IMG/VR virus record: IMGVR_UViG_3300022602_004810
Coordinates: 1 to 64,000 of that record
DNA: 64,000 nt
Source of the DNA: a virus
Reading direction: 5' to 3' (one strand)
Shown here: positions 4,605-64,000 of the stretch, one piece after another
Position numbering within the stretch: the first letter of the stretch is position 1
Layout of the letters: the number at the start of each line of letters is the position of its first letter
The notes under the pieces: model-generated
What the model saw: only the letters and a program-made list of their open reading frames with translations
What the model was told of the DNA's origin: nothing
Databases searched by the model: none
Made by a program: the position numbers and the translations under genes

Positions 4605-5420
4605 TTAATGGTCCGTTTGTTCCGGACTCTTATTATCTGGGATTTTGTAGTCCCAAATTCCTTTTTGTTGACCTTGTTTGATCAACTCTACTACTGCCGC
4701 TTCAACAGTGGCTTTCACTGCTAAAGTGCCAGGTTCATTAATAGTCAAACCAGTTTCAAATTCAAACGCTGAAGTTCCTTGTTTGAAGAACTTAAGCACT
4801 GCGATACTGTCTGCTGTACTATAAACTGTTTTAGTAACGGTTACTGTGGTCAACACTTTGCCTGTACTAACACTTACTGCTCGTAGGCTAACTGTTACAA
4901 TGTCTTTTGAGTACTGTGTTTGTGGTCCAATACCTAACCATTTATATGCCGCACCACCACTTTCAGTCGAACTATCGTAGCCAACAATACCACCTTCCAT
5001 GATAATACCAGCAAACTGTAGTGGTATTAAGGGTTTAGCCGCAGTGCCTTCGTAGGCATCACGCATCTGTTTAATAATAGTACGTTCTTTGATCAAGTTG
5101 TCTACATTTACACGTTCCACAACATCAAACCACTGTCCATGACCTACTTCTTGTAGGGCATTGATTAAGAACGGTTCAGCACCTTGTGTCACCGCAGTGC
5201 TAAAGCTGGCTATGTTTGGTGTATTCTTACGTTGTCCTGTTTTGTCTTGGAAACTGTAGACTGCTACTGTGATCTTTGGACCTGCTGGTGCTGGAATAGC
5301 ATCAAACTCTTTTACCATCTTGTTTTTTGCCAATTCGGGTTCGTGCTCATACCCAGCTTTCTGAACAGTGGCACAGCCAGTTAATGCCAATAATGATAAT
5401 AATACTAATAGTCGTTTCAT
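4605..5420 (-). CDS. csgG: Curli secretion channel lipoprotein CsgG
   Basis: Lipobox LTGC; VAVYSFQDKTGQRK, FSTAVTQGA, WFDVVER, EGGIVGYD, VSLRAVSVSTG are CsgG motifs. Confidence 0.92.
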   Translation of the reverse strand: MKRLLVLLSLLALTGCATVQKAGYEHEPELAKNKMVKEFDAIPAPAGPKITVAVYSFQDKTGQRKNTPNIASFSTAVTQGAEPFLINALQEVGHGQWFDVVERVNVDNLIKERTIIKQMRDAYEGTAAKPLIPLQFAGIIMEGGIVGYDSSTESGGAAYKWLGIGPQTQYSKDIVTVSLRAVSVSTGKVLTTVTVTKTVYSTADSIAVLKFFKQGTSAFEFETGLTINEPGTLAVKATVEAAVVELIKQGQQKGIWDYKIPDNKSPEQTDH

Positions 5421-5878
5421 TATGGTGTTGATCCTGTAAGATTAAACTGTCCTAAAGGAACATTAATAGTAGTTACATTACCTAGAGTATCTGTTACGTT
5501 TAGAGTAATAGCACCACCTGTGTTTTGCCAGTATATAGTATTACCTTGGAAGTTAAAGGTGCCGCTAGTACTAGAACCGCCAGCAAACATAGCTGTGGCT
5601 AGGTTTTGACTTACCTGTGCTAATACACGACTTTCTAAGTTAGTTAAGAATTGATTCAATGGAGTATTCTGTGCCGCAGTAGCCGCTTGTTGTTGTGCGG
5701 TCTGTAGAGCCTGTTGTATAGCCTGCGCACGTGTGTATTCTTCGTTCTGTATAGTCAACACGTATGTACCGTAACCATTACCATTAAAGCTAGGGCTTTT
5801 GAATGTATAGTCGGGCAGAGGTGCGGCTATCGCTGTCGATGCCGCAAAGAAAGTGATTGTTATTATTAGTTTTTTCAC
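5420..5878 (-). CDS. csgF: Curli assembly protein CsgF-like
   Basis: GTG start with AGGAG SD; signal peptide followed by YTFKSPSFNGNG; FLTNLESR; C-terminal TTINVP; directly upstream of csgG. Confidence 0.8.
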   Translation of the reverse strand: MKKLIITITFFAASTAIAAPLPDYTFKSPSFNGNGYGTYVLTIQNEEYTRAQAIQQALQTAQQQAATAAQNTPLNQFLTNLESRVLAQVSQNLATAMFAGGSSTSGTFNFQGNTIYWQNTGGAITLNVTDTLGNVTTINVPLGQFNLTGSTP

Positions 5879-5899
5879 TGTCTAGGCTCCTAGTATTAA

Positions 5900-5905
5900 T
5901 ATTTA
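5900..5905 (-). promoter_or_regulatory. T4-like late promoter core upstream of the curli operon
   Basis: TAAATA followed by AGGAG SD and the csgF GTG. Confidence 0.5.
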
Positions 5906-5952
5906 CTAGAACCTAGTGGTGAAGTTTTATGGTACTTTAATCTTAATCTAGA

Positions 5953-19440: not shown

Positions 19441-19466
19441 GAAAAAGAAAGGGCCCTAAGGCCCTT
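19441..19466 (-). terminator. Intrinsic terminator
   Basis: AAGGGCC-TTAG-GGCCCTT followed by TCTTTTTC. Confidence 0.85.
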
Positions 19467-19471
19467 GAAAG

Positions 19472-19494
19472 ATACTACTTTTAGGAGGTAATAC
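19472..19494 (-). ncRNA. Candidate 3'-UTR RNA hairpin with anti-SD loop
   Basis: GUAUUAC-CUCCUAAAA-GUAGUAU stem-loop immediately before the terminator. Confidence 0.4.
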
Positions 19495-39398: not shown

Positions 39399-40640
39399 TT
39401 AGCCTTTTGATAAAAAATTAGTTCTAGAGAAGGTTAAACGATCAACTAATTTAACAGCGCCACCATTGTGACCTATAGCCACAAATCCCTCTGGCGCTGT
39501 TACTCGATAACCGTCTGTGGTCTTTTGGAATGTACCAATACCTTCAACTTGATTTAGTTTGTGTATTAGCATGAGTTTTAATTCAATGATGCGTTTGTAT
39601 GTAGCAATAACACCTAATAGGTTATTACTGTTGTCTGCGATCCAATCTTCACGTGCTTTGATCTTAGCTACACGAGCCTGTGCCGCACGACCTTCTAAAC
39701 CGCCACTTAATTGTTCGATACCTTTCATCATTTCTAATTCATAATGCTTAATAAAGTTCTTTAAGAACTGCAAAGGTTCACCTACATGACTGCCACTGCG
39801 TATCTGCTGATTAATGAAAGGTTTAATCATACGACTAAATTCTTTATCTTGTAGAACAATATCAAAACGTTGTTGGCCTAATTTGTTCATTGTGTCAAGT
39901 GTAGCATCTAGATTGCGTTGTATCTTAGTATTTTCACTAGGAGTTAGACTTGCTACACCTGTGTAGTCTTTGTAGGTAGCATCATCAAACCATACGTTTT
40001 TAGTTTGTGTAAATCCGCCGACATTAACTCCAAACTCTGCAGTCATTGTGTCAATTGATTCACCTGTATAGCTAGTATGGAATATAATACCAATCTGTGC
40101 GGCAGCAATGCGCTGCCCTAGATGGCTTTTAACTGGCACCGCATAGGTAATTGTATTTGGAGTAAACACATAGCAATCTTCTTCGTTAACATTAACTACT
40201 GTAAGATCTCCCGGAGTGAACATTAGGTCACCTTGCACAACTCCGCCAATACGTAATTCGCGTAGATATTTTAATGCGGCTTCCAACATTGCTGATAGTG
40301 TAGGTTCGTGGCCATACCATTGTTCAATATCTTTGGTTGATTTACAGCGTTTAGGTTGTGCTTTGGAAAATACTGACTTAGTGCCAACAAAGAAACGACC
40401 ATCTTCTGGATCTGTGCCACAGATAATTGCTGGGCTACCGTCCCATTTAACCGTTAGCTGTGTTGTTGTACCTGTGCCTTCTGCTAGCATCTGACGTAGA
40501 CTGTCGATATAATTTAGTGCTTCTTGTGCGCCTGCCCATCCCTTGTTAAAGATAAGATCTTCAAGATGCTCAAGGTGTGTGTTCTTACTTTCTGTAAGTA
40601 ACCATTGTGGGGTTTGTTTCTTAATTTCGTATAGTTGCAT
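39399..40640 (-). CDS. Conserved T4-like jumbo-phage protein
   Basis: KNTHLEHLED, TVKWDGSPA, QGDLMF, PNTITY, PEGFV, KLVDR motifs (KWDG and EGFV recall the ligase-like nucleotidyltransferase fold). Confidence 0.65.
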   Translation of the reverse strand: MQLYEIKKQTPQWLLTESKNTHLEHLEDLIFNKGWAGAQEALNYIDSLRQMLAEGTGTTTQLTVKWDGSPAIICGTDPEDGRFFVGTKSVFSKAQPKRCKSTKDIEQWYGHEPTLSAMLEAALKYLRELRIGGVVQGDLMFTPGDLTVVNVNEEDCYVFTPNTITYAVPVKSHLGQRIAAAQIGIIFHTSYTGESIDTMTAEFGVNVGGFTQTKNVWFDDATYKDYTGVASLTPSENTKIQRNLDATLDTMNKLGQQRFDIVLQDKEFSRMIKPFINQQIRSGSHVGEPLQFLKNFIKHYELEMMKGIEQLSGGLEGRAAQARVAKIKAREDWIADNSNNLLGVIATYKRIIELKLMLIHKLNQVEGIGTFQKTTDGYRVTAPEGFVAIGHNGGAVKLVDRLTFSRTNFLSKG

Positions 40641-62374: not shown

Positions 62375-63507
62375 TAATTTTCTCTTATTATTGTCGCTGT
62401 CCAATAGACAATCTTTTCAGCGCGGTTCAACCAATCTAGTTTACGTCCACCAAACATCATGTTGTGTGTGCTGACTAGTAGTGGCACAGGAAATTCCCAA
62501 TTCTGCGGAAGTTTCTTAGCATATACTACTTTAACATTATATGGATCATAATCGCTAGTGTTAGTCTTGCCGTTTTGATCAAAGCGTACTATATCAGACT
62601 CACTGAACCGTGATAGATCTAAGTCATAGGTCAAGCCTGGATCATATATACAAATAGGATAACGATTAGTTAATTCGGCGTAGTCTAGCAACCAATCCCA
62701 CAGATTAGGTTCTGTGGGTGACAAGTGGGCAACATGCCTGGTACCCAAATATTCTAAAGACTGTCCATAATCATTACTAGCTTCATGTAGTATGTCAGCA
62801 TCTACACTATATCCTAAGATGCCTGCGTGATCAATTAGTTTAACAATGTCATTATTGCCAATGTGTTCGGCTATATATTCTTTAAGGCTGTCTGCGGCAT
62901 TAGTTACTTCATAGCCTAGATCGGTTTTGACCAATTTGATTTCATATGGTTGACTTTCACATACTAATATCTGCTCAAACAGGTCAATGATTTTGGAATC
63001 AATGTTAAATTCTCTACTATCGCCCCACGTGACAATAAAGTTAACATTATATTCACTGACGCCCAAAACCCAAACTTTAGTTTCGTTATCCCATTGACTA
63101 CGTCCTTGCCCTGTTTCTTTAAGCTGACGCATTTCCTCAATCCAAGTTTGATTATAAGGGAACTTAACTAGAATATTATCGCCTTCCAACCAAATGCGCC
63201 GTTCACGATCAATTTTACGTAGAGGTTTACGCCACTGTGGTGTTTCAACTGGGCTAACGTCTATGTCAAATTTGGCAAATTGACGTTTATATTTCAGTGC
63301 TAGTTTTATAGCCAACTCACCTTGACGGTCAGTAAGTGCTTCGACACCCCACAAGGTAGTATTGGCCATGCTTTCTACAATTTGAACATCGTATCGAGCC
63401 AAGCTGAACTTATACTTGCTGTTATTAAACAGTATGTTATTAGAATTAGCCGGATCGTAGCCAGCCAGTAGTTCTATATAGTCTTCGACGTATTGAAATT
63501 GTAACAT
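62374..63507 (-). CDS. Conserved hypothetical protein
   Basis: 377-aa ORF, TAATG-coupled to the helicase. Confidence 0.6.
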   Translation of the reverse strand: MLQFQYVEDYIELLAGYDPANSNNILFNNSKYKFSLARYDVQIVESMANTTLWGVEALTDRQGELAIKLALKYKRQFAKFDIDVSPVETPQWRKPLRKIDRERRIWLEGDNILVKFPYNQTWIEEMRQLKETGQGRSQWDNETKVWVLGVSEYNVNFIVTWGDSREFNIDSKIIDLFEQILVCESQPYEIKLVKTDLGYEVTNAADSLKEYIAEHIGNNDIVKLIDHAGILGYSVDADILHEASNDYGQSLEYLGTRHVAHLSPTEPNLWDWLLDYAELTNRYPICIYDPGLTYDLDLSRFSESDIVRFDQNGKTNTSDYDPYNVKVVYAKKLPQNWEFPVPLLVSTHNMMFGGRKLDWLNRAEKIVYWTATIIREN

Positions 63508-63513
63508 ATAATT

Positions 63514-63542
63514 AGTATATGATATTTAATCCTGAATAGCAA
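63514..63542 (-). promoter_or_regulatory. Sigma70-like promoter
   Basis: TTGCTA-17-TATACT; ATG 6 nt downstream. Confidence 0.55.
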
Positions 63543-63545
63543 GAG

Positions 63546-63577
63546 AAAAAGAAGCCCAAATGTTTCCACTTGGGCTT
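63546..63577 (-). terminator. Intrinsic terminator
   Basis: AAGCCCAAGTG-GAAA-CATTTGGGCTT followed by CTTTTT; the GNRA loop and G-U pair indicate the minus strand. Confidence 0.85.
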
Positions 63578-63582
63578 TAAGG

Positions 63583-63620
63583 CTATCACACTAGGAGCTA
63601 GACAATAGAAAGTGTGATAG
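63583..63620 (-). ncRNA. Candidate 3'-UTR RNA hairpin with anti-SD loop
   Basis: Perfect 10-bp stem CUAUCACACU/AGUGUGAUAG; 18-nt loop containing UGUCUAGCUCCU. Confidence 0.5.
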
Positions 63621-63625
63621 AATGA

Positions 63626-63826
63626 CTATTTAAGTTGATCTTTTTGATCTAACAGTTGATTAATTTCTTCAATACCTTCATCGAACTTGGTACTGCGTTC
63701 GTTTATTGCAGATTCAATGTCACCCAATGATTTCTTTAGTGCCCTTAAGGCTAGTAAAGCAATAGCAATTACCGGTACAATGCCTATGACCATAACTGCG
63801 GCCATTACAATTAGTGTTTCTGTCAT
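63626..63826 (-). CDS. Small membrane protein
   Basis: N-terminal TM helix followed by a coiled coil; TAATG overlap. Confidence 0.6.
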   Translation of the reverse strand: MTETLIVMAAVMVIGIVPVIAIALLALRALKKSLGDIESAINERSTKFDEGIEEINQLLDQKDQLK

Positions 63827-64000
63827 TAGTCTAATCCTTCAATACGACCTTGCTTGTCAATACCAATACGTTCAGCGTTTGGTGTTTCTGGTAGGCCTGG
63901 CATGGTCATGATGTTGCCACATACTGCTACAATAAATTCAGCACCTGTACATAATCTTAATTCACGCACTGTTAGCACATGACGTTCTGTTGCGGCTAGT
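63826..64000 (-). CDS. fhs: Formate-tetrahydrofolate ligase, 3' end (partial)
   Basis: Manual translation [49 protein letters not shown] matches the FTHFS C-terminal signature IMTMPGLP. Confidence 0.85.

Follow-up and report, generated by a model that had tools for sequence, protein, structure and literature searches.

A 64,000-nucleotide stretch of viral DNA (the window; the first 64 kb of the 87-kb IMG/VR record IMGVR_UViG_3300022602_004810, which is estimated to be 25% complete and is called G000 below) carries on its minus strand a hairpin, P1, immediately followed by an intrinsic terminator. The RNA structure of this hairpin is conserved and covaries, and the loop that it displays, which hardly varies, is complementary to the ribosome-binding regions of two phage genes: the AAA ATPase gene that opens the hairpin's own early operon, and csgF, which opens a curli-like operon 57 kb away. 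From these data we propose, with moderate confidence, that the element is a small regulatory RNA module, made up of a terminator and a loop directed against Shine-Dalgarno (SD) sequences and start regions, for which the AAA-ATPase start region would be the conserved partner and csgF a lineage-specific extra. The hairpin probably blocks or times the translation of both genes, as judged from its sequence and that of its partners. The module comprises the following features:

63583..63620, minus strand: hairpin P1, with a 10-bp stem (63620-63611 paired with 63592-63583) and an 18-nt loop (63610-63593).

63590..63604, minus strand: the proposed seed UGUCUAGCUCCUAGU, complement of the csgF leader.

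63546..63577, minus strand: the intrinsic terminator, with an 11-bp stem (63577-63552) and a GAAA loop, followed by CUUUUU.

The order of stop codon, perfect 10-bp stem with 18-nt loop and intrinsic terminator, described for the minus strand in the initial annotation, can be read directly from the sequence, and RNAfold agrees with it: folding of positions 63640-63540 returned exactly the two hairpins (-29.3 kcal/mol, z = -5.4), and 0 of 200 shuffled sequences were as stable. The span 63546-63620 that had been given for the hairpin fits hairpin and terminator together and not the hairpin alone, whose stem starts at 63620. The 5' arm CTATCACACT (63620-63611) and the 3' arm AGTGTGATAG (63592-63583) pair perfectly around the loop TTCTATTGTCTAGCTCCT, within which lies the conserved motif UUGUCUAGCUCCU, running on as AGUG into the stem. 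P1 and the terminator are separated by 5 nt, and the conserved linker reads CCUUAAAG in G000 and CCUCAAAG in most relatives.

To assess conservation, relatives were collected by an alignment-based search with the 377-aa protein encoded downstream (80 loci, 71 of them with enough upstream DNA and 49 of these distinct) and by an exact search with the loop core (99 stretches, 80 of them listed); the covariation alignment comprised 41 distinct elements. Compensatory changes were found at 8 of the 10 stem pairs of P1 and at all seven pairs of the terminator helix. The proportion of paired cells was 95.7% for P1; over all cells it was 94.3%, versus 29-40% with the partners slid, and 0 of 500 shuffles reached any of five measures. 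On this strand G-U combinations outnumbered A-C combinations (approximately 54 versus 13 in a hand tally), and the common G-U pairs, together with the run of T, identify the minus strand as the RNA strand. While the stem drifts freely, the loop sequence GCUCC is invariant, UUGUCUAGCUCCUAGUG is nearly so and GUCU..U.GUG is at least 90% conserved; the variants encountered were GUCUGG, GUCAAG and AUGCUCCU. The loop is unchanged across phages whose neighbouring protein is only about 50% identical, and in a close relative (L002) the whole module is kept letter for letter next to a diverged upstream gene and different flanking coding DNA. A covariance model built on the element found one strong copy each in G000 and in three further genomes (G018, G017 and G001) and none in G012 (100% complete) or G013 (92% complete), the weak match in G012 being a plain terminator; no second copy within a genome was detected by this model or by the sharing of 9- to 12-mers. 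The window also holds a CUCCU-loop hairpin of other sequence at 19441-19494 (minus strand; GTATTAC-CTCCTAAAA-GTAGTAT), which directly precedes a terminator, followed by AAATATT and ATG.

The complementarity to csgF concerns two adjoining features:

5420..5878, minus strand: csgF, 152 aa (Pfam CsgF, 1.2e-15), with a GTG start at 5878-5876.

5879..5894, minus strand: leader segment ACUAGGAGCCUAGACA, comprising the SD and the spacer up to the GUG, the proposed target.

The gene is the first of a curli-like operon with Pfam matches to CsgG (9.5e-47), Curlin_rpt (1.7e-4) and FecR (7.7e-11). Both the coordinates and the pairing were verified for the earlier claim that the loop is antisense to the csgF SD up to the GTG with a single bulged C: positions 63604-63590 (TGTCTAGCTCCTAGT) complement positions 5894-5879 (ACTAGGAGCCTAGACA) except for one extra C in the leader, and the duplex is extended over the GUG start by G-U pairs. 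In a comparison with shuffled controls that had been set beforehand, csgF ranked first of the 122 start regions predicted in the 87-kb record (-29.3 kcal/mol, versus -20.4 kcal/mol for the next), and 0 of 300 loop shuffles, in which CTCCT was kept in place, found any start region as good. In the reverse direction, a scan of the whole record returned the loop as the top same-strand complement of the csgF start region (-30.3 versus -24.8 kcal/mol). When the loop itself was compared with both strands of the entire record, only its own antisense outscored csgF. A generic start-region consensus was ruled out as the source of the match, the consensus being merely A-rich after GGAG. The second-best match in the whole genome, at 39934 (plus strand), was discarded as a candidate since it lies antisense inside a DUF6267 gene and in no start region. 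Viewed on its sense strand, this gene (413 aa, 39399-40640, minus strand) has a 14/15 copy of the loop motif, GTCTAACTCCTAGTG, at 39934-39950; G017 retains the site, G016 less faithfully, and it may reflect chance or protein conservation.

Hairpin and csgF occur together in four independent genomes (G000, G018, G017 and G001). The match recurs in G018 (202 kb), the CsgF of which is just 38% identical: here the csgF leader reads AAGGAGCUAGACAAUG, and with AAGGAGCTAGACAATG it fits the loop without interruption for 14 bases, the last being the A of the start codon (-29.7 kcal/mol; first of 247 start regions, 0 of 300 shuffles as good), and the reverse scan again gave the loop as the top same-strand complement. 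The motif TAGGAGCTAGA, beside TTAAATA, also stands before csgF in L029, L074-76/79 and L089. On a quick tree of csgF it is scattered among the lineages and marks at least five separated ones; the motif pattern used for this tree missed the G018 row, which was counted as motif-positive by eye. Both G012 and G013 have csgF with different leaders, and neither the hairpin RNA nor the leader motif is present in them. Searches for the hairpin in G002-G004, which have the csgF leader of G000, and in G015 gave only 3-mismatch coding matches in records that are 12-42% complete. Among the further hairpin-bearing contigs csgF was found in none except G021, and no loop-bearing RNA fitting the different csgF leaders of G013, G017 and G001 was found.

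Two further start regions resemble the loop's complement. In G018 (loci L185, L182) the runner-up among the start regions is that of a DUF4337 membrane protein, at which CACTAGGAGCTAGAAAAATG forms 14 perfect pairs (-27.0 kcal/mol); the gene lies just after that of a 93-aa protein which is membrane-like by eye. On a curli-bearing contig that also has csgF (L057), locus L270 encodes a 727-aa secreted-looking protein; the sequence CACTAGGAGCTAGAC, separated from its ATG by 4 nt, perfectly complements the loop and the start of the stem over 15 nt.

The conservation of the loop far exceeds what csgF targeting can explain, and the AAA-ATPase start region appears from the sequence comparison to be the more widely kept partner, with covariation as a block. 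The AAA ATPase (phrog_1250) is encoded by the first gene of the hairpin's own early operon, starting at 68930 of G000, outside the window, downstream of a consensus promoter, TTGACA-17-TATAAT with an extended TG (locus L371, G000 63001-70000); it opens a chain of about ten small open reading frames (ORFs) with the hairpin at its end. Its start region, AGGAGCA(U)UAGACAAUG, forms 6 + 8 pairs with the loop around a 1- or 2-nt bulge. When start regions were ranked against each genome's own loop, that of the AAA ATPase was among the top three in all six genomes with a GUC(U/A)(A/G)GCUCC loop (3/122, 3/247, 3/149, 1/105, 1/116 and 2/43), with energies of -20.0 kcal/mol in G000 and -24.0 kcal/mol in G018, weaker than csgF in both. 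An AGACA-type AAA start region was present in 12 of the 13 contigs with the canonical loop, in none of the three whose loop lacks GUCUAG (G001, G027 and G020) and in neither of the two genomes without the RNA. In G029 a loop reading UUGUCUGG is accompanied by an AAA start region reading ACAGACAA, a change from U-A to C-G. The hairpin of G018 directly follows the AAA gene, and the minimum free energy (MFE) structure of the 988-nt mRNA joins start region and loop by 18 pairs; in G000 about 5.3 kb lie between the AAA start and the hairpin, with one weak terminator-like site and two TAAATA motifs between them. The 91-aa and 63-aa genes of the early operon are preceded by TAAATA, and the distal operon may therefore also be transcribed late.

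The csgF leader, in turn, contains a hairpin of its own:

5882..5916, minus strand: csgF cis hairpin, with the 5' arm CUAGGUUCUAGUA at 5916-5904, TAAATA at 5905-5900 in the loop, and the 3' arm UACUAGGAGCCUAG at 5895-5882, which includes the SD.

Six csgF leaders were folded (G000, G018, G001, L074, L089 and L029; -14.3 to -21.4 kcal/mol), and five of them adopt a hairpin whose 3' arm contains the SD and whose loop contains TAAATA or lies next to it; in the MFE fold of the exception, L029, the SD motif and its complement both stay unpaired. Upstream of gene starts, TAAATA is strongly overrepresented, with 23 occurrences versus 4.2 expected in G000 and 57 versus 6.2 in G018. The loop of the distant P1, GUCUAGCUCCUAG, is a near-perfect version of the 5' arm of this cis hairpin. 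Cofolding of the RNA with the short, predicted late csgF leader yielded a net gain of -10.5 kcal/mol in G000 and -16.8 kcal/mol in G018; with the long leader of G000, which read-through would produce, the RNA loses to the cis hairpin. With its late promoter TAAATA inside a hairpin and the SD in the 3' arm, the csgF leader resembles those of the T4 genes e, soc, 49 and I-TevI, for which the relevant part of PMC3014915 describes closed read-through transcripts and open late transcripts that are without the 5' arm. Unlike in these T4 leaders, as far as they are described there, the inhibitory arm has a second copy, displayed by the loop of a distant hairpin, that could act in trans; the parts of PMC3014915 that treat the T4 leaders mention no such trans-acting copy.

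We propose that an early operon of a giant freshwater phage, driven by sigma-70, has this hairpin as its 3' end, and that the loop would pair with the ribosome-binding regions of phage mRNAs and thereby block binding of the 30S subunit. Pairing with the AAA start region could take place within one molecule or between copies, and would provide feedback or an early shut-off. In G000 and the distant G018, the strongest partner would be the short late csgF transcript, which would lack the 5' arm of its own hairpin; the distant loop, by copying the missing arm, would restore the block in trans, so that production of the CsgF/CsgG pore would be delayed or damped. From structure, conservation, complementarity and the statistics above we infer that the RNA accumulates, that it pairs with these partners in the cell, and that the effect has this direction.

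A number of observations weigh against this proposal. Conservation of the csgF pairing in relatives, as had been expected, was borne out in G018, where the 14 perfect pairs are better than in G000, and failed in G017 and G001, so that two of the four genomes holding both elements keep it. In G017, of which G021 is a near copy, a canonical loop coexists with an unrelated csgF leader; in G001 (329 kb, complete) the leader is one base off that of G000 and the stem is fully compensated, and the loop reads GCAUGUAUGCUCCU, so that only AGGAGC pairs with the leader. The leader motif of L074 is located about 50 nt upstream of the real SD and can therefore exist without an SD role, and the csgF leader motif is in general also constrained by its SD and by its own cis hairpin. 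Three of the 15 pairs with csgF require opening of the stem, and since the loop is near-invariant, its base-by-base covariation with csgF is not assessable. For the AAA ATPase, the counts and ranks are not independent because the start regions are homologous; one contig, L011, combines the canonical loop with a non-matching AAA start region (-12.8), and the compensatory change in G029 is single and comes with an indel. The energies, obtained with RNAduplex and RNAcofold, include no accessibility term, and the start regions derive from simple heuristic gene calls. All 24 sequencing runs holding the stretch, mostly from lake or fresh water, are on record as DNA and none as RNA.

Four other explanations of the hairpin were weighed against the proposed module. 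The icaR mRNA of Staphylococcus aureus reportedly carries in its 3'-untranslated region (3'-UTR) an anti-SD motif complementary to the mRNA's own ribosome-binding site at its 5' end, and the phage hairpin could likewise regulate its own operon only, its 3' end pairing with the start region of the first gene, with the csgF match as a by-product of a shared AGGAGC.UAGACA-type site. G018 comes closest to icaR, as a single mRNA of 988 nt carries both the hairpin and the AAA start region there, and its MFE fold pairs them; the far wider conservation of the AAA partner than of csgF and the missing csgF pairing in G017 despite its canonical loop are also in line with this explanation. Unlike icaR, however, the phage motif belongs to a lytic giant phage and is presented in the loop of a covarying hairpin, and in G000 about 5.3 kb and some ten genes lie between the two sites, with the better partner, csgF, 57 kb off on another transcript. 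Regulation confined to the own operon is unlikely in our judgement, given that csgF outpairs the AAA ATPase (-29.3 versus -20.0 kcal/mol in G000 and -29.7 versus -24.0 kcal/mol in G018) and tops the list in two phages with CsgF proteins just 38% identical, that the leader motif is found in at least five separated csgF lineages, and that the loop reproduces the 5' arm that the csgF cis hairpin is missing.

Hairpins recognised by proteins, too, typically combine a covarying stem with a loop that does not vary, and the present loop could be bound by a protein, be it an RNA chaperone, a nuclease or a translational repressor, or could stabilise the 3' end, with no role in base pairing. A chaperone could bind to the conserved linker CCUCAAAG and to the U tail, and the unrelated CUCCU-loop hairpin by a terminator at 19441-19494 suggests a general class of 3'-end elements. 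Such a role would leave unexplained why, in two genomes, the loop finds its best complement at the start of one and the same gene, and why loss of GUCUAG from the loop goes with loss of AGACA from start regions; no protein emerged as a candidate for the binding, and we consider a site of this kind rather improbable.

The same 15-bp motif could also act as DNA, as the site of a phage transcription factor near TAAATA late promoters that would be placed in opposite orientations at the two loci. Both sites are indeed shortly downstream of TAAATA, and in L074 the motif stands beside the promoter and is not the SD. The covariation of the stem with G-U pairs nevertheless points to a folded RNA on one strand, the U-G pairs in the arms of the cis hairpin would be mismatches in a DNA inverted repeat, and 9 of the 41 elements have no TAAATA-like motif upstream, which leaves a DNA site with very little credence. 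That P1 is an extra stem before a terminator with a coincidental match to csgF, an objection prompted by the choice of the match from a whole 64-kb window searched for anything striking and by the fit of a CUCCU loop to any strong SD over 5 nt, is scarcely credible when 0 of 300 CUCCU-keeping shuffles reach the score in G000 or in G018, the match recurs independently in G018, and the loop is invariant across phages with neighbouring proteins about 50% identical.

Turning to how the proposed regulatory RNA would be produced, the hairpin in G000 is surrounded by the following features:

63626..63826, minus strand: 66-aa ORF with one predicted membrane helix; 5 nt separate its stop codon TAG (63628-63626) from the hairpin.

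63627..63632, minus strand: TAAATA, a motif that corresponds to the core of T4-type late promoters and overlaps with the 66-aa ORF's stop codon.

63514..63542, minus strand: sigma-70-type promoter TTGCTA-17-TATACT, serving the next gene (377 aa).

The 3'-UTR location proposed in the initial annotation holds in G000, where the hairpin shares its terminator with the 66-aa gene, and does not extend to many relatives, in which this ORF is missing upstream of the hairpin and a non-coding spacer with a TAAATATT/TATATATT motif precedes it instead. Since the hairpin is thus set apart behind TAAATATT/TATATATT, it may be a primary transcript too. Of the 41 elements, 12 have TAAATA, 17 a TATATA-like motif and 3 AAATA at 10-14 nt before the stem, and 9 have none of these. 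Judging from such motifs, the hairpin RNA may also be made as a separate transcript of about 75-80 nt, and the TAAATA at 63627..63632 may be the promoter of an independent short RNA. In many relatives (L114, L119, L121, L126-L128 and others) a further short inverted repeat, for example CTATCTGTATAATTAGATAG, stands just before TATATATT/TAAATATT. The 66-aa ORF has no Pfam or PHROG match.

Downstream of the terminator, the ATG of the 377-aa gene (63507) follows the -10 box by exactly 6 nt, and a leaderless mRNA is therefore predicted. The arrangement of TTGnnn, 16-18 nt, TAnAnT, exactly 6 nt and ATG was present in 41 of the 49 distinct relatives (loci L097-L176), none of the 49 has an SD-like 4-mer before the gene, and the gene thus appears to be leaderless. 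Its product has no Pfam or PHROG match. Among isolated phages, blastn of 62800-64000 and tblastn of the 377-aa protein gave no match; the adjacent UvsW-like helicase is about 50% identical to those of the phages Phosso (Sinorhizobium), Atu_ph07 (Agrobacterium) and PA5oct (Pseudomonas) and of the jumbo phage 2.275.O (Vibrio), and so places the phage in their vicinity.

Several known classes of RNA share part of this organisation. CpxQ, SroC and DapZ, as well as RsaE and RNAIII with their C-rich anti-SD loops, are trans-acting small RNAs (sRNAs) that derive from 3'-UTRs or use a loop as seed. As in these sRNAs, the terminator is shared with the upstream mRNA, the seed is conserved, and occlusion of SD and start codon is predicted; unlike them, the phage element would target the phage's own genes and, given a promoter-like motif before the hairpin in most relatives, may be a primary transcript. 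The Betaproteobacteria toxic small RNA (RF02278) carries an anti-SD motif and was the best match in Rfam 15, at 18.8 bits against a gathering score of 50 (E = 0.3; all others at most 17.6 bits); the element is like it a short two-hairpin RNA, but lies far below the gathering score and is not a member. The PeSL cassettes of T4-like phages, as characterised in the pertinent parts of PMC4122927 and PMC2839356, likewise have a terminator stem-loop directly before a sigma-70 early promoter, in a module that stays constant as its flanks diverge. PeSLs are described there as repeated within a genome, whereas the present hairpin is single-copy in each genome bearing it and adds an extra hairpin with a conserved loop.

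Regulatory RNAs that act by base pairing have been studied in detail in bacteria and prophages. According to a 2024 review (PMC10884466), where it deals with lytic phages, the role of such RNAs in them 'remains yet to be elucidated', and few cases have been characterised. The csgF and csgG genes themselves are known from lytic myophages, namely pelagimyophages (PMC7029224) and the Methylophilales phage Melnitz (PMC9004378), according to the portions of these reports that deal with them; unlike these phages as described there, G000 also encodes curlin-repeat and FecR-domain proteins. The terms 'sRNA' and 'small RNA' each occur zero times in the main text of PMC9004378. The authors of that study suggest, where they discuss the genes, that the CsgGF pore helps to time lysis, and because of this idea and of the DUF4337 membrane protein as the second-best start region of G018, a link of the hairpin to the late envelope is possible, if speculative. 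Tentatively, then, the element could be a translational timer of giant lytic phages, produced together with or out of an early operon, which would switch off the first gene of that operon and, in some lineages, provide in trans the inhibitory arm that the csgF leader lacks and thereby hold back the CsgG/CsgF outer-membrane pore (in G018 also the DUF4337 membrane protein) until very late, and so contribute to the timing of envelope breach or lysis; we put this forward as a possibility of distinctly lower standing than the regulatory module itself.

The hairpin described here represents a compact, single-copy RNA family with textbook covariation, an invariant loop and two concrete candidate partners in its own genome, one of which is the first gene of a phage operon for curli-type secretion, the purpose of which in phages is still to be settled, to go by the discussion of these genes in PMC9004378. 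If the proposed pairing is true, giant phages would time their own translation by RNA too, beyond proteins such as T4 RegA and RegB, by means of a module of about 80 nt for which sequence complementarity would be the sole requirement, and the hairpin would provide a handle on when and why phages make CsgG/CsgF pores.

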